From: Podarcis melisellensis
Taxonomy: Eukaryota
Assembly: GCA_964234715.1 (NCBI GenBank)
Contig: OZ174279.1
Reading direction: 5' to 3' (one strand)
Length of the DNA stretch: 64,000 nt
Below, piece by piece: positions 14,386 to 61,380 of the stretch. Positions within the stretch are counted from its first letter, which is position 1. Each line of letters opens with the position of its first letter. The notes under the pieces are model-generated. The model saw nothing but the letters and a program-made list of their open reading frames with translations, did no database searches and was not told where the DNA came from. Position numbers and translations under genes: made by a program.

Positions 14386-14998
14386 CATCATGGAACTCTA
14401 AAGTGGCATTGATCCCTTAGCTTAGGTTTTGCCCTAGACCTGCTGAGCTTTAGCAAGGCTGCTGCTGCTTCATCTGCCCACAAACTGTGCCCTGGCTAAA
14501 ACTTCCATCTGTCCTTTTCTCTTTCAGTTGAATTTAGACCCTATGATTAACCCTCAAATTTCTCTAAGTTTTGTCATCTTTTCCATGTAAATAAATGAAA
14601 TCCGAAAGTTTAATCTGCAGCTATATTCACATAACCACAATTCCTTACTGGAATATTGAAATAAGTTGTTAATACTCTTCTGGCTTTGCCCTGCATGGGG
14701 TCCAATGGGCTTCCTTGGACCCCATGCAGAGTAAAATAATTGCCAGAGTGTTGAAGGGAAAACTTGGGCATCTTATCCACTGGGTGTTCAAATGCTGACA
14801 GCTAGTAATCACCATTAGAAATTTGTTCTTTATGCCCTATTTTCTGCTTGGTGGTAGAATGGAAGTAGAAATGTAATTGTTTCTGCCAATGGAGGTGCGG
14901 CTACAATATATGATTGTGTAGAGATAATAGTGTACCCAGCCAATAGCTATTTGAAGTTAGACCTTCCTGACGGATCACTTTCTCCTTTCCCCCCCTAG

Positions 14999-16319
14999 GG
15001 TTTTATTCGGATACAGTCTCAGTAGCTGATGTTTCACATAGCGAATCGGTCGAAGAAAGCCCATTCCACCCTCCTCCCCATTCATTTTCTACTGTTTTTG
15101 ATGAGGACAAGCCCATCGCTAGTAGCGGGACTTACAACTTAGACTTTGATAGTATCGAGGTTGCGGATTCTTTGAAAACTGCTGACTCCAGCTCTCTGGA
15201 CACAAGAAGCTGTGACACCAAGTCACATGTTCGAAGAAAATCCACAGACTCTGTTCCAATTTCCAGGTCAACTTTGTCTCGGTCCCTTAGCTTGCAAGCT
15301 GGTGATTTTGATGGATCATCTTTTCTTGGCAATAGCGAGGCAGCAGGTTCAGCAACAGATACATTTTGTACCGGTTCAAGCAGTGCTTCCAGTACTCTTA
15401 AGCGCACAAAGAAGCCTAGGCCAGCTTCCTTAAAGAAAAAACCGTTGGCCAAAAAACCTCCAGATGTCCCACCGGTGAAAGAGCCAGAATCATCTGACAT
15501 CAACCAAGATTCCGTTGCCTCAAGTGAAGAAAAAGTGTCTGAGGAGAGGTTGGGGCTGACAGAACTTGAGTGCCCAGAGCCTGTCCAAACTGCTGCCGAA
15601 AAAGGGGAGCCCTCTGAGGGCCAGGCAGCAGCTTGTCCGTTTGACCCAACTAACGTTGATGAGATTAGCACATTTGGTGCTGGAGACAGCAAAATACAGG
15701 ACTCTCCTCCTGCTAGCAAGAAACCTCCACCTCTTACGACGGCACCGGAAGCTGTGGAGGTGACCCCATCAGACACTGGGGGACAGGAAGATCCTCCAGT
15801 GAAAGGCTTATCTGTGAGGCTGGAATTCGATTATTCTGAGGAAAAAGGCAGCAGCGAAGAGCAACACGAAGGCTCGCCTCTGCCCAAAAAAGTGGGCAAA
15901 AAGCCTGGTGCCAAAATGCCACTGAGGAGGCCAAAGACTAAAAAGGCTGGGGAGAAACTTGACAATGCCCCCACCACCCCAACCAAGGCCCCTGTGGATC
16001 CAAATGAGATTCCTGTTCCCAAAGGCTCTTATACTTTTGATATCGACAAATGGGATGATCCCAACTTCAACCCGTTTTCTTCCACTTGCAAAATGCAAGA
16101 CTCTCCTAAATTGCCTCAGCAAACAACAGCGGCGTACAGTTTCAATCCGGATGTGTGTGAGGACTCTATTGACCCTTTCAAGCCTTCCTTGAAGGTAGCT
16201 AGCTCTCCCACAAAGTCTCCAGCCTCCTTTGAGATACCAGCTAATGCCAGTGAGATCAATGGAACGGAAGGGGACAGCCTAAATAAACCAGCAAAAAAGA
16301 AGAAGACCCCACTCAAGAC
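14999..16319 (+). CDS. TACC2: TACC2 large exon (1321 nt): SDP repeats and basic NLS-like clusters
   Basis: ccctag| acceptor and AC|gtaagt donor. Encodes FDEDKPIASSGTYNLDFD, RRKSTDSVPISRSTLSRSLSLQA, VRLEFDYSE, KGSYTFDIDKWDDPNFNPF and PAKKKKTPLKT, all TACC2 signatures. Corresponds to ORF 15172..16323. Confidence 0.97.
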
Positions 16320-16402
16320 GTAAGTCAGAATGTAGAAAAATTCATATGCAATATAAGATCCCCCCCCCCGCCAAAATGATAGTGCTTCTACACTTTCTTA
16401 TA

Positions 16403-31428: not shown

Positions 31429-31601
31429 NNNNNNNNNNNNNNNNNNNNNNNNNNNNNNNNNNNNNNNNNNNNNNNNNNNNNNNNNNNNNNNNNNNNNNNN
31501 NNNNNNNNNNNNNNNNNNNNNNNNNNNNNNNNNNNNNNNNNNNNNNNNNNNNNNNNNNNNNNNNNNNNNNNNNNNNNNNNNNNNNNNNNNNNNNNNNNNN
31601 N
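31429..31601. other. Assembly gap (173 N)
   Basis: Run of N within a TACC2 intron. Confidence 1.
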
Positions 31602-52108: not shown

Positions 52109-52269
52109 AGGATGAACAGAGAGAAAAATCCATGTCCCACCACACAGTCCAGCAGCTGATTATAGAAAAAGAGCAAGCATTATCAGATCTGAACTCTGTG
52201 GAAAAATCACTGGCAGATCTCTTTAGAAGATATGAAAAAATGAAAGAGGTTCTGGAAGGATTTAGGAAG
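52109..52269 (+). CDS. TACC2: TACC2 TACC-domain exon (EDEQREKS...SDLNSVEKSLADLFRRYEKMKEVLEGFRK)
   Basis: ccacag| acceptor and AAG|gtaagt donor; canonical TACC-domain sequence. Confidence 0.97.
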
Positions 52270-53696: not shown

Positions 53697-53817
53697 AGCC
53701 AATGCTGAAATTGCACAAGTCCGTGGCAAGGCTCAACAAGAACAGGCAGCTTACCAAGCCAGTCTCCGTAAAGAGCAGCTGAAGGTGGATGCATTGGAAA
53801 GAACACTGGAACAAAAG
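53697..53817 (+). CDS. TACC2: TACC2 TACC-domain exon ([40 protein letters not shown])
   Basis: tcacag| acceptor and AAG|gtacac donor. Confidence 0.96.
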
Positions 53818-55098: not shown

Positions 55099-55164
55099 AA
55101 TAAAGAAATAGAAGAATTGACGAAGATTTGCGATGAACTGATTGCCAAAATGGGGAAAAGCTAA
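55099..55164 (+). CDS. TACC2: TACC2 last coding exon (NKEIEELTKICDELIAKMGKS*)
   Basis: tttcag| acceptor; ELTKICDELI is the TACC C-terminal motif; TAA at 55162-55164. Confidence 0.97.
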   Translation, partial: NKEIEELTKICDELIAKMGKS

Positions 55165-55591: not shown

Positions 55592-55603
55592 AATAAAAAT
55601 AAA
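55592..55603 (+). terminator. TACC2 polyadenylation signals (tandem AATAAA; another at 55432)
   Basis: AATAAAAATAAA about 430 nt after the stop codon, followed by U/GU-rich sequence. Confidence 0.65.
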
Positions 55604-56089
55604 ACTTGAAAAACGAAGGGGATTGTCCCATCAAGTCGTTATTATCAACGAATTTTCATTTCCAACTGGGTAATAGGTATGTCTTTATTCCACTACTTGT
55701 GTGTGTGCTTTAAATGGAATTCTAGATCCCTGATGGAGGGGGTACCCAGATATTTAACAAACAGCATGGCATCCAAGTCCTCTATACCTTCATGAGATGA
55801 GACTCATTTTTTTCTTTTTGTCCAAAAGAAGCAGCACTAATCCCCAGAGGCTAAGTAGTAAATATATTTAGGGGTTTAATCATTGATCTGGTGACTAGCA
55901 CTGTTCATTGATCTTGCTTATCTTGCCTTTAAGACTTCTGCAGTGGCATTTTCACAGGTAACTTGAAACTTGCCAGAATTACCACCTGTGTATCTTTGAT
56001 CTCATCACCACTTTGATTCACAAGTAAAGCTACCTTTGGTGTAAGGTCACCTCTATCCTCTGTGGGAAAGGATATAGCGGTGGGAGAAC

Positions 56090-56335
56090 GAGAGAGAGCT
56101 TGGGCGTTGTAGTGGTTAAGAGCGGTGGACTCGTAATCTAGGGGACCGGGTTCGCTTCCCCGCTCCTCCAAATGCAGCTGCTGGGTGACCTTGGGCCAGT
56201 CACACTTCTCTGAAGTCTCTCAGCCCCACTCACCTCACAGAGTGTTTGTTATGGGGGAGGAAAGGAGAATGTTAGCCGCTTTGAGACTCCTTCGGGTAGT
56301 GATAAAGCGGGATATCAAATCCAAACTCTTCTTCT
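56090..56335 (+). mobile_element. Young tRNA-derived CORE-type SINE between TACC2 and the Ly6/uPAR gene
   Basis: TGTAGTGG A box, GGGTTCGCTTCCC B box, GGGTGACCTTGGGCCAGTCAC core and (TCT)n tail; retains CpGs. Confidence 0.8.
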
Positions 56336-56936
56336 ACTTATAGCCAATGAAATTGTCCTGTCACTGGCCCCTGCATCTTCACCAGAGGGTTGGAAGAACC
56401 CTCAAAACACATTTGGGGTAGGGCGTGGTTTGCAGGGAGAGAAAGTCCCAGTGTGCAGGCAGGGATGACTTCATTGGATACAAGCAGCTATGTGTATGTT
56501 AAGTGAGTGGGATTGTGTGTGGGTCTGGCCCCACAGAATAATGCAGCCCTCAATCTGAAAAAAGTCTTCCCCACTTCCAGTTTAATCTGAAAGACAAATC
56601 TCCACCTATCCATCCCTAAGTAATATGAAAACGGATATCAAATAGTTTACGTTCATGAGGTTTGCTTCTAATTAAATATAATTATAGACTTATTTGATGT
56701 TGTGGCAGATAAAACAGTTTCTTCTAGATGATGATTAAAATTTATTTCCTGAGAAAGTTGTAGAGAAGAATTACATCTGGTTTGAAGGACAACTGGGAAG
56801 AACTAGATAAGCAGCATTCTGCACACCTCTTTATCCTCGACATCATCCTCTATAGAGGATTAACTATGCTGAATAAGCATTAGAGCTTTAATGACAAACA
56901 GTTTGCTTTGTCTAATGATACATTTCTTGGCTCTCC

Positions 56937-56991
56937 ATGATGAAGCCATTTGCCAGCTTGGTCCTCCTCAGTTTGCTTTTCACCATCCAAA
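56937..56991 (+). CDS. Ly6/uPAR (three-finger) gene, exon 1: signal peptide MMKPFASLVLLSLLFTIQ
   Basis: Basic-then-hydrophobic signal peptide; A|gtaagt phase-1 donor, as is typical of LU genes. Confidence 0.85.
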
Positions 56992-58143
56992 GTAAGTCAT
57001 TTTGCTCTATTTGTTCTCTCTGCTTTATGGTACCTGGCACATTTAGCATTTCTTCATGTCAGATGCATTATTTTGTTGGTTCCAGTGCTTTTCTTCTAGA
57101 AAAGAAAGGTGCCGGTAGATGTTACAGTAAGTGCACCACTTTTCACCAATGCTTTTCAACTAGAAAAAGGGTGCTGGTACTGCATATTCTTGAGTACCCC
57201 CAGAAAAAAGCACTAATTGCTTCCATGAATGGGGGTTTGCTAATACTAGGGAATACTTTTTGCATAGCTTTCTGATGCAATAGTTACAGTAATGGCCAGC
57301 TCTTTGATGTATATTTAATTGGTTCCTGCTAGAACATCTTTGGGAATGAATCAATTTTTAGTTAGGTTGCTTAAGTTATCTTCCAAATGCATATGGCTGA
57401 TTAACATCCTATATCCTTTTAAATGTGCTTGTGGGAGCAGGCAGTTATTGTTTTGTTTTGTTTTGTTCTTGTTTAAGTTTTTATTGCATATTTTATGCTG
57501 TGAACAGCTCTGAGATCTTCAGATGAAGTACAGTTTACAAATTTAATAAATGAAAAATAAATAAATATCAGCATTAAATTTTCACAGGGTTGTTCCTGTT
57601 GCTGATCTGCTACAACAGATAAACAACCCCCTCCTCTGAGTGAAGCTTGGAAACCATTCATGTTGAAAATGTGTCTCTTTAGATGCTGAATATTTAGTTT
57701 TTAAATCATCATTCAGATTTGCAGACACGAGCAAGGGAAAGCAGTACAGTACCTTGCTGAAACTGAAATTTACAGGATTTGGAATTCGTAATTTCTCTTC
57801 TTTTCCTGGTTGGCATTATAATGTGAATAGTAAAAGTTGCATGCTACCGTTTCAAAGTTTCTTGCAAGATCTCACTTTTATTAGGAGGCAAAGTAGACAT
57901 CACACTTTTCAAATATGTTAACTCTGTTAAGTGTGGGGTAAATAGAAACAAGCCCAAGATGTTTGTGAATTGATCTGCCTCTTCTCACGAATTAAAACCC
58001 AATACAATGACTTCTTACTAGATTCTCCATTATTCTTTGGCAATGTTTGTGTGAAATATAAGTCAACTTGCCCTTTTTATTTGAAGATGATTTTCCATAG
58101 TTCTTTGCATATAAGGCCTTCATCTGTTTTTAATTGATGACAG

Positions 58144-58260
58144 GCGAAGCACTGCAATGCTATACGTGTGTAGGTACAAGTGATGAAGAATGTAACAGAC
58201 AAGGTACTGAGCAATGTCCAGGGAATTCTGATGCCTGCGCAATCATAAGAGGACAGTCAA
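58144..58260 (+). CDS. Ly6/uPAR gene, exon 2 (S-EALQCYTCVGTSDEECNRQGTEQCPGNSDACAIIRGQS)
   Basis: gacag| acceptor and A|gtaagt donor; LxCYxC start and Cys1-5 of the LU domain. Confidence 0.92.
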
Positions 58261-58705
58261 GTAAGTGGTTGTATAATGGTCATAATCAAAACTATTTCTG
58301 GTTAATTTCAAGCAATGGAAACTTCTGAGAATTTTGCCAGCCAGAAGGGGGGGGTGGAGGCCATAACACAGAGCAGAATCCATTTGCATTTTATCTTTAA
58401 CATTATTGATAAATTACATTTCGGTCCACTTTTGTCCTGAACTTTCAAATATCCATAAATACAGCATTTAAAATCCATAATTCTGAAGGGCCATTTAATC
58501 CAGATAATTTAAATTTATGGGAATGTTGTCTGTATTGTGTTCTTTTCCCTTGTTAAATACTGTACTCTCAATTACTCAGTAACTGAGTAAATTTCATGCC
58601 ATCAGAAGTCTAACTAGATTTTCTACTATAAGGAGACAAAAGATAAATGTGCTATTGTTGAAGGTCTGTATTTCCTGTGGGTTTTAGCAGGTATTGCATA
58701 GATGA

Positions 58706-58794
58706 TAATATAGCAAGTTACTTGAGATGTTAACTAATTTACCTGAAGATTAATATAGCAAGTTACTTTGATGTTAACTAATTAATTTGAAGAT
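58706..58794. repeat. Two-copy tandem duplication of about 45 bp
   Basis: TAATATAGCAAGTTACTT..GATGTTAACTAATT...TGAAGAT repeated at 58706 and 58751. Confidence 0.85.
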
Positions 58795-59951
58795 ATCAAT
58801 CAATATTGACAAGATACCAAGATATAGTATGAAAGCATAGAATATTTCCAAGAGTCTCAGTAATAGTTGAAATAATCACAAGCACATTTCAGAAGCTTCC
58901 TAAGGAACTGGAGCTAGCCTTTCAATAAACATCTTGCCCAAATGATGTCCCTCTCCGCTGTTCCAATGGAGAAGAGGAGATGCCTTCAGTAGCTTTCCAC
59001 ACCCAAAGTTAAGGAAGTTCAGATGGGGGAACTTAAAACTGTAGTTTCTGTCTAATATACCTTTAAACTCATGAACTTGGCTAGTAATATCTCTCTTTAA
59101 AAGGTCCTTGATAAACACTTCAACAATTGAGTTATTTTGCTTCAGGTTATGACAAATTTAGATAAGTATTCACTTTATTTTCATGTTTCTTTCCTGATTA
59201 TACCAACCTTTTGAACTTTTGGAACATTCATTTATTGTCTCTTGAATTTACTCTTAAAGTTCAATTTCCCACTTACATGTCAGCATTTCCTAAACAATGA
59301 GTTTCCACAGACAAGACACTTGATTTTAGGCAAGGTTTGAGTTCTCTATCTGATCCATCTTCTCTGAAACCCGAAAAACATTTCCATCACATGTTCATCA
59401 TATCATATTAGCAAGCAGTATAAACAATACCAACAATACAACCAAGGTTGCTTTCTCTTAAGCTCCTTAAAGTTCTCTCTTTCCTCTTCTGGAGATGTAA
59501 CTAAAGCAGGTGAACTAGTATTTTGTCATTGTCACCCTTTCTCAATATTTCTATGAGATAAAAGGCAGCAATGAAGCAAAGATTAATAATGAACTATTTA
59601 GGCTTCAAGCCTAGAGTAGGAACAAGCAGAAACTTGGGATTAGAACATCAGTCTATGTTTTTCTAACATCCACAACCATTTTTCTGGATGGCAACTAAAT
59701 AAAGGGAAGTCTTGAATCTTCTAATAGGCATGTAAATTTGTAGCTACACTTCTCGACTGACAAATAAAATAAAATGCGTTTTATAAAGCCAAATCAATGT
59801 AATATTGTTCCTTAAAATGGCAGTGCTTTCACCTAGGATAAGCAGTTTGAAGATGTGAGCCTAGATGTTCCGATTCAAGCTAATAAGATAAAGAAGCAGT
59901 TAAGCATGGATGGTGTAATATGTTCTGGATTTGTTTCTGAATCTATTCTAG

Positions 59952-60148
59952 GTGGCATTATGAAGTCGTGTTCGTATAGGTCATTCTGTGAGCGAGCGCG
60001 GAGGGAAGGTTCAAGGGCGCCTGGAGTGAGTGTCCACTGCTGCTATTCAAATAATTGCAATGCCAAAGGCCTGGGCTCAAAACATATTCCCTCCTCCGGC
60101 TACTTCTCATTACTTCTTTCTGCTCTCTTGTGGCACTTCTTTTTTTAA
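59952..60148 (+). CDS. Ly6/uPAR gene, exon 3 (S-GIMKSCSYRSFC...HCCYSNNCN plus hydrophobic GPI-type tail)
   Basis: ttctag| acceptor; Cys6-10 with the CCxxxxCN motif; ends GYFSLLLSALLWHFFF*. The spliced CDS is 369 nt (122 aa) with no internal stop. Confidence 0.92.
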
Positions 60149-61380
60149 CCCGGAATGGAATTTGAACAGGAACAGAAGATGGAAAGGAAGCTATTCAACC
60201 AGAGCTACAATACTGTATTTGAAGGATTGATATCAGGAAACCCAAATGAGCACTCCTATGACCATAGGACATTACATTAAAAAAAATATCAGTGGCAGTT
60301 AAAGATGTTGGTTGGAGCAGAGGGCACAGAAAAGCAGACATAAACCCTGAAACAGTTTGGTCTCAATCCTATGTATTTTCAGTCATTGAGTATTTCAAGG
60401 CTATTGTTTTAACCAGATGTGTTTCAACCATATTGTTGGTTTTAATATGATTCTATATTGGGATAATGCGAGAGCAGGTTTGGGGAGACCAGCAAATGGC
60501 ATTGTACCTATGATGCTAAGTAACATAAATTTGTAATATTAAGCAGAAGCAGCACAGGATTCGCACAGGATTAATCATGGTTAATGTGACAGTTTTATGT
60601 TTTTAATCATGAAGGTGAACCACTTTGGGAAAGCTTGCCCTGAAATGTAATAGATAATCTAGTTAGAAGAGTTAGTTCTGTCCATAAGAAAAACCCATGA
60701 GCTGAATCAATGTGTAAACTGGGCTGGGCTGATAAGCCCAATCTTTTACCAACAATATGTGCACCATCATTCCCCCCTCCTCGTTGTTAATTCAGCATGT
60801 GAGTATTTCTCATGAACTGGGCTTTATTTGACAATTAATCCCACAAACAAGCAAAACATAGCTGCCAGCAGCAGCCTTGTAATGATGTATGTGAAGCTTT
60901 CCAATCTGACAATGGTAAAGAGCCTCTGTGAGACCAGCAATGTCACGAAATTACTTATGGAACAATAGAGCTTAGCAATCCTCCTCCAGGAACTCTTTCT
61001 CAAGGAACTCTCCTAACAGGAACTCTTTGTGATGAATGGTTTAGTGGAGAAGAAATAAACAAAATGATTTGAAAATATACCTAAAGCCTGATTTTATAGA
61101 GTTAGTTGAGTAGCTTTGGTACCATTCTGCATATTTCACAGCCGACTGTTGGAAAATCAAGTCCTTAAAATGGCCTTGTGGCATTGGATGGATATTACGA
61201 AAACATGATGGGCAAAGGGAGTACAGCTTTATCTAGGATGATCCCTAGGGTAGAAACTGCAAATCCAGATTAAGCAATGACACAGTTTCTGGTCACTAGG
61301 CTTCTTAGGTTGCATTCCTATACCTACCTACCTGGGAGTAAGTCTTATTAAATCCAATAGGACTTGCTTCTGAGTAGACA

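Follow-up and report, generated by a model that had tools for sequence, protein, structure and literature searches.

An LU gene directly downstream of TACC2 in the lizard Podarcis melisellensis is very probably the squamate orthologue of zebrafish ly6pge

The 64,000-nucleotide (nt) stretch of Podarcis melisellensis DNA analysed here (the window; contig OZ174279.1 of assembly GCA_964234715.1) carries a gene of the LU (Ly6/uPAR) family at positions 56937 to 60148 which, to judge from its sequence, is almost certainly the orthologue in squamates of the zebrafish gene ly6pge, a name that stands for 'pineal gland and eye'. A first-pass annotation had described three exons with phase-1 introns, a signal peptide, ten Cys residues, a CCxxxxCN motif and a hydrophobic tail, and all of these were recovered: splicing of 56937-56991, 58144-58260 and 59952-60148 yields a 122-aa open frame without internal stop. 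Exon 1 (56937-56991; all coding features named here lie on the plus strand) encodes the signal peptide (residues 1-18 and the first base of codon 19), for which cleavage after Ala21 is predicted and which matches a gecko gene model at 17/21 and bird proteins at 12-13/21 positions. It holds two in-frame ATG codons, 56937 and 56940, the second of which lies in the more favourable context (A at -3). Intron 1 (56992-58143, 1152 nt) and intron 2 (58261-59951, 1691 nt) are both phase 1 with GTAAGT...AG (GT-AG) borders. Exon 2 (58144-58260) covers Cys1 to Cys5 of the LU domain, with loop I and its family signature N36-R37-Q38-G39 and the first half of loop II, and intron 2 interrupts codon 58 at the tip of that loop (hairpin 49-54/60-65 in an orthologue model). 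The loop II tip is the canonical position of the second intron in LU genes (PMC6600238). The coding part of exon 3 (59952-60148) contains Cys6 to Cys10, the loop III helix, CCxxxxCN, the signal for a glycosylphosphatidylinositol (GPI) anchor and the stop codon.

The cysteines are residues 24, 27, 35, 43, 50, 64, 70, 87, 88 and 93, and the tenth is followed by Asn94. Three exons, phase-1 introns and a 73-residue ten-Cys domain ending in C93-N94 agree with the definition of the family, in which the domain has 60-90 residues, ten Cys and an Asn after the tenth, and is encoded by three exons with phase-1 introns (PMC6600238). The two exon-specific Cys patterns are each unique across all six frames of the 64 kb, exon 2 by itself scores above the Pfam UPAR_LY6 cut-off (27.3 vs 24.8 bits) and exons 2 and 3 are matched by orthologues in tblastn, which together exclude chance. 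The squamate LU gene is intact and real, and its gene model is correct. Hydropathy analysis shows hydrophobic stretches at about residues 6-17 and at residues 108-122 (60101-60145), the latter being the C-terminal part of the GPI signal, with no cytoplasmic tail behind it. In the orthologue alignment a small residue occupies the column of Gly97 (60068-60070) in 117/117 sequences and that of position 99 (omega+2) in 112/117, and a median of 25 residues follows position 97. This conserved pattern looks like a typical GPI signal, with Gly97 as predicted attachment (omega) residue.

Orthology was assessed by several searches. A search with exon 3 found 21 relatives; every named one is a bird protein, and their automatic names are inconsistent. 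An Atlas search with the kittiwake protein returned a cluster named 'lymphocyte antigen 6 family member pge' at the top (0.97). A profile built from 13 bird proteins was run on 8000 scored candidates and gave 164 matches, the best 120 of which are listed: 17 named birds, one alligator, 12 amphibians, one elephant shark, 87 ray-finned fishes and two unnamed proteins. Counts refer to named matches, with unnamed contig-derived matches and 74 mostly unnamed matches of a representative search set aside. Zebrafish ly6pge was recovered by this bird-only profile with E=1e-40. Within the best 120 of 164, most fish rows and the elephant shark row carry the name ly6pge and no tetrapod row does; the tetrapod orthologues are misnamed as CD59-like, LYPD3-like, LYPD5, PSCA-like, LYNX1-like or uPAR-like (e.g. 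chicken LOC121111178 and Xenopus LOC101730888). The gene is ancient, as the first-pass annotation had considered possible, with orthologues in elephant shark (a chimaera), ray-finned fishes, amphibians, alligator and birds; its description there as unnamed does not hold, since the zebrafish orthologue has a name. Eight unnamed proteins from the representative search (P0126, P0130-P0132, P0134, P0150, P0151 and P0156) are whole-domain matches with E values of 1e-22 to 1e-11. They score between clear orthologues and ordinary LU proteins and may represent remote orthologues, perhaps from jawless fishes or mammals, or else a paralogous sister family.

Within the LU domain the window protein is identical to its orthologues at 64/73 positions in kittiwake, 58/73 in chicken, 55/73 each in alligator, Xenopus and bowfin, and 49/73 each in zebrafish and elephant shark, the ranges being 55-64/73 for birds and alligator and 47-55/73 for amphibians. 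In the comparison with zebrafish the signal peptide shares 9/20 residues, the LU domain 49/73 and the tail 6/26, so that constraint lies on the domain while signal peptide and tail diverge. The zebrafish protein shares the Cys spacing, the signal peptide and the GPI tail with that of the lizard. An alignment of 118 sequences (117 named orthologues and the window protein, after removal of one partial bird protein and of unnamed rows) has the exact Cys spacing 2-7-7-6-13-5-16-0-4 in 109/118, and all ten Cys are present in 116 of the 117 orthologues. About 20 further positions are 95-100% conserved, including N36, Q38, G39, G55, G59, M61, K62, S65, F69, A73 and G82; N36, D48, K62, F69 and N94 are found in 117/117 and Q38, G39, G55 and G59 in 116/117. 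The first-pass annotation had pointed out a short loop II, an acidic loop I and an Arg-rich loop III. Loop II has 13 residues, loop I a net charge of -3 and loop III four Arg in the lizard protein, as described; Arg richness is not family-wide, however, because R72 (29), R74 (16) and R75 (30) are rare among the 117 orthologues and R79 alone is conserved (102/117). Loop III is more Arg-rich in sauropsids than in zebrafish, and this is a sauropsid feature rather than a trait of the family. In a tree of 27 sequences the window protein grouped with the gecko sequence (support 100/98) within the sauropsids (96/98). Squamate, sauropsid, frog, salamander and teleost groups are strongly supported; the tree was built without LU genes as outgroup, 12 of its 24 internal branches are open, and a long branch leads to the shark.

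The LU gene lies directly 3′ of a TACC gene, as the first-pass annotation had placed it. Upstream exons match Pfam TACC_C, and the exons assigned to this gene are 14971-16323 (a 450-codon open stretch without Pfam match), 52111-52269, 53701-53817 (coiled-coil, TACC_C) and the last coding exon 55099-55164, which is followed by poly(A) signals AATAAA at 55592 and 55598. The LU gene starts 1.3 kb past these signals. From its C-terminus and its link to BTBD16 we take the upstream gene to be TACC2 and not TACC1 or TACC3. For the other side, a search of longer proteins with exon 2 gave a single match, a gene model of the gecko Sphaerodactylus townsendi (UniRef A0ACB8FA12), in which the first 67 residues of the LU protein are followed by a BTBDG-type BTB domain with BTBD16 as closest structural match. 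A real LU-BTB fusion was rejected, because only LU residues 1-67 are kept, Cys7-10 are missing and a BTB protein would hardly carry a signal peptide. The model is probably an annotation chimera, which places the LU gene 5′ of BTBD16 on the same strand. Together with the TACC side in the window this gives the squamate order TACC2, ly6pge, BTBD16, with one neighbour known from the window and the other from the gecko model, both squamate. A tblastn search of the 64-kb window with the gecko model found no BTBD16 exons; BTBD16 therefore starts beyond 64000 or is too divergent. The first-pass annotation was right to call the gene a solitary LU gene of GPI type located away from the usual clusters: the window holds a single copy of ly6pge, and this copy is not part of the TOP1MT/THEM6 cluster.

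Some further features of the region were recorded. A gap of 173 N is present in the assembly at 31429-31601, inside the TACC2 region, and a SINE-like (short interspersed element) insertion, presumably of the squamate (Sauria-type) kind, occupies about 56095-56340 between the 3′ end of TACC2 and the LU gene. An out-of-frame ATG at 56915, 22 nt 5′ of the start, would on the spliced mRNA give rise to an overlapping upstream open reading frame of 38 codons if the 5′ untranslated region extends there. Intron 2 contains a 44-bp tandem duplication (58706-58794, two copies, 88% match). The C-terminus is encoded on a run of T (60131-60148) and is three residues shorter than in bird and alligator proteins. 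The nearest candidate poly(A) signal is ATTAAA at 60276-60281 (plus strand), the next AATAAA follows at 61054, and a 15-bp sequence is repeated three times at 60984-61028. A search of Rfam gave no matches.

For mammals, the first-pass annotation had expected TACC2 and BTBD16 to be neighbours with no LU gene between them in human. A listing for human 10q26.13 is in line with this, as it gives TACC2 and BTBD16 as the sole listed genes of a 74.5-kb segment (PMC12936413). Both are among genes tied to a macular-degeneration locus (PMC12936413, PMC6994629). The matching human interval adjoins the PLEKHA1/ARMS2/HTRA1 part of that locus, which may be coincidence. No mammal is found among the 118 named matches in the best 120 of 164. 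Turtles, coelacanth and full-length lizard proteins are likewise not among the matches listed, although the window proves the lizard gene. Because turtles and lizard proteins are missing as well and 44 matches stand outside the list, loss of ly6pge in mammals is likely rather than established. Orthology to a characterised mammalian LU gene would have removed the novelty according to the first-pass annotation; none of the 48 human LU genes of a family review (PMC6600238) emerged as a close match. Among the papers listed on the nocturnal bottleneck, none mentions ly6.

The three-finger fold is predicted with confidence. The protein modelled is not the lizard one but its kittiwake orthologue, with 48 sequences as input, and the core of the model (residues 21-90) has a predicted local distance difference (pLDDT) of about 90. 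Loop I forms a short helix in it, loop II a short hairpin and loop III a helix of 11 residues, and Foldseek concurs on the fold. The best structural matches were LYPD6B (Z 9.9, root mean square deviation 3.4, 85 aligned residues), Prod1 (9.4), CD59 (9.3) and LYNX1 (8.8), neighbouring matches being tied within one Z unit. Together with SLURP-2 and PSCA they span Z 8.3-9.9 at 20-29% identity, so that none of the solved LU proteins is closely related. LYPD6/LYPD6B, LYNX1, Prod1 and PSCA, which share the fold at these Z values, are GPI-anchored modulators of receptors or channels (PMC6600238). They differ from ly6pge not only in sequence; the loop II of ly6pge is shorter, and the extra disulfide of LYPD6 is absent.

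The published expression and knock-down study of zebrafish ly6pge (Lypge) is said to describe cone and pineal expression, control by otx5, rhythmicity and small eyes on knock-down. Its title concerns eye and pineal formation (Ji et al. 2018; PMID 29196253). In a single-cell table of the zebrafish pineal, ly6pge is the first-listed marker of cluster 2 (adjusted P 5e-278, log2 fold change 1.5), next to gnat1, gngt1, exorh, cnga1a, asmt and tph2 (PMC8439043). In the same paper gnat1, gngt1 and exorh are the defining markers of rod-like pineal photoreceptors, and through these marker definitions cluster 2 is matched to them; ly6pge thus marks rod-like pineal photoreceptors in zebrafish. Furthermore, in the anterior brain of opn4 double mutants, a region that includes the pineal, ly6pge is differentially expressed together with phototransduction genes of the pineal (PMC9066073). 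The function of the gene can accordingly no longer be called unknown, as in the first-pass annotation, and pineal and retina are absent from the tissues suggested there for expression analysis (gonad, skin, oral glands). Expression in pineal, parietal or retinal photoreceptors of the lizard is to be expected with fair probability.

The best overall explanation in our view, based on analogy and given a probability of about 45%, is that ly6pge encodes a GPI-tethered auxiliary ligand acting in cis on a conserved membrane protein of photoreceptors. Following standard LU biology, the protein would be secreted into the endoplasmic reticulum, cleaved after Ala21, GPI-anchored close to Gly97 and exposed at the outer side of the membrane. 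There it may act in cis on a single conserved membrane protein of photoreceptors (ion channel or receptor) and tune the surface delivery or gating of this putative partner. Precedents for GPI-anchored LU proteins that modulate channels are LYNX1 on nicotinic acetylcholine receptors (nAChRs) and Drosophila Quiver/Sleepless on Shaker (PMC6600238), and it is these precedents together with photoreceptor expression that favour the cis ligand. The constraint on the domain suggests one slowly evolving partner. Near-invariant residues, namely N36-R37-Q38-G39 of loop I, G55 and G59-x-M61-K62 of loop II, S65, S68, F69, A73 and P81-G82-V83, form a candidate binding face. Taken by itself, the auxiliary-ligand mode is preferred over the rivals discussed below only tentatively.

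Several points weigh against the auxiliary-ligand explanation. The loop II of 13 residues is short, near the 12 of CD59, and LU proteins that bind nAChRs have a longer one, which makes an nAChR target doubtful. Alligator retains ly6pge although crocodilians are said to have no distinct pineal; a pineal-only role is therefore unlikely. The small eyes reported on knock-down would fit a developmental role equally well. A CRX/OTX-type TAATCC motif about 75 nt 5′ of the ATG (56857-56862, minus strand) is a possible promoter element, but such motifs are not more frequent than chance upstream of the gene (two observed, 0.94 expected in 1.4 kb, P=0.24), and E-box, D-box, RORE, PCE1 and TATA motifs were not found in 55600-57000. 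In the pineal file ly6pge appears once, in a sheet named 'kallisto forced' with an unlabelled cluster (PMC8439043). It was not found in supplements on retinal photoreceptors (PMC9901936, PMC8405809, PMC13332834, PMC10382231), whose marker tables are partial and in which older names may hide the gene; expression in retinal cones is therefore uncorroborated. The supplement of the opn4 paper and 875 characters of a salmon pineal supplement did not contain it either. The evidence for photoreceptor expression comes from zebrafish only.

A somewhat unlikely alternative is a developmental co-receptor. In that case a raft-localised LU protein would strengthen a morphogen pathway while eye and pineal form, comparable to the action of Lypd6 on Wnt via Lrp6 or to that of Prod1 in the patterning of limbs. 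This view is favoured by the title of Ji et al. (2018) and by the Lypd6 precedent (PMC6600238). LYPD6B and Prod1 also head the structural matches, but the top Z values are tied and the identities are 20-26%. Strong expression in differentiated pineal photoreceptors and the change in adult opn4 mutants do not fit such a role well. Moreover, the additional loop III disulfide typical of Lypd6 (PMC6600238) is missing, as 116/117 orthologues have ten Cys.

Less likely still, ly6pge might serve adhesion or act as an outer-segment scaffold by which non-mammalian photoreceptors keep their contacts or open-disc membranes in order, comparable to the LU proteins of Drosophila septate junctions or Bouncer (PMC6600238). 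Expression in zebrafish pineal photoreceptors and a range so far confined to non-mammals among the matches listed would be compatible with this, but the idea draws on analogy.

It is very unlikely that the protein protects photoreceptors as a CD59-like inhibitor of complement's membrane attack complex (MAC). Both proteins consist of a single GPI-anchored LU domain with a short loop II, a loop III helix, LQCY and D-A-C motifs and similar Cys spacing, and the equivalent of CD59 Asp24, D48, is invariant. A sequence search of the PDB with the profile also gives CD59 as best match (E=1e-5). The Pfam CD59 cut-off of 33.9 bits is attained by orthologues from birds, fishes and alligator (34-43.6 bits), and the authors of the opn4 paper class ly6pge as an immune gene (PMC9066073). 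Identity is about 26%, however, and the MAC-binding residues W40, F47, Y61 and Y62 of CD59 (PMC9935631, PMC6244018) correspond to S65, R72, V85 and H86 in a cysteine-anchored alignment, at positions where CD59 orthologues vary. Mouse CD59 also lacks Y62, so this mismatch alone says little against a CD59-like role. The CD59 interface diverges between species (PMC9935631, PMC6244018), whereas ly6pge is far more conserved, with 67% identity of the domain between shark and lizard.

A silent remnant, intact by chance and unexpressed in the lizard, is highly improbable: T30 and E41 differ from all 117 orthologues, but the open frame, canonical splice sites and all ten Cys are kept, the end branch in the tree is short (0.037) and 43/46 residues are identical to the part retained in the gecko model. 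That ly6pge is a precursor or close relative of snake three-finger toxins, whose ancestors the first-pass annotation counted in the LU superfamily, is largely refuted, as the toxins share the fold (Z 7-8) and exon layout, but they and their ancestors belong to the TOP1MT/THEM6 cluster and the toxins lost the membrane-anchoring tail (PMC10421932, in whose main text neither TACC2 nor pge occurs), while ly6pge, located after a TACC gene and before BTBD16, keeps its anchor, is strongly conserved and shows no expansion in the window.

A doubtful extension of the auxiliary-ligand explanation would make ly6pge an unrecognised accessory subunit of photoreceptors in all jawed vertebrates, an endogenous three-finger channel ligand that kept about 67% identity between chimaeras and lizards and disappeared on the mammalian line along with pineal photoreception and a number of cone features; the human TACC2-BTBD16 site might then keep remnants of photoreceptor regulation.

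As a named zebrafish gene with a published study ly6pge was already known. Orthology beyond fishes, squamate gene order, misannotation and probable mammalian loss were not found in the literature searched, which did not extend to subscription journals. The new results are modest: ly6pge orthologues are traced to amphibians, reptiles and birds, the gene order is given for squamates, the wrong names are recognised and loss in mammals is made probable. They correct an annotation error throughout the family, as reptile, bird and amphibian genes filed as CD59-like, LYPD3-like, LYPD5, PSCA-like and LYNX1-like are one old gene, ly6pge. This is relevant wherever complement regulators or toxin precursors are counted in genomes of these groups. 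A little-studied zebrafish gene becomes a candidate for a conserved component of non-mammalian photoreceptors, and if the loss in mammals is true, ly6pge would be a non-opsin marker of lost pineal photoreception.

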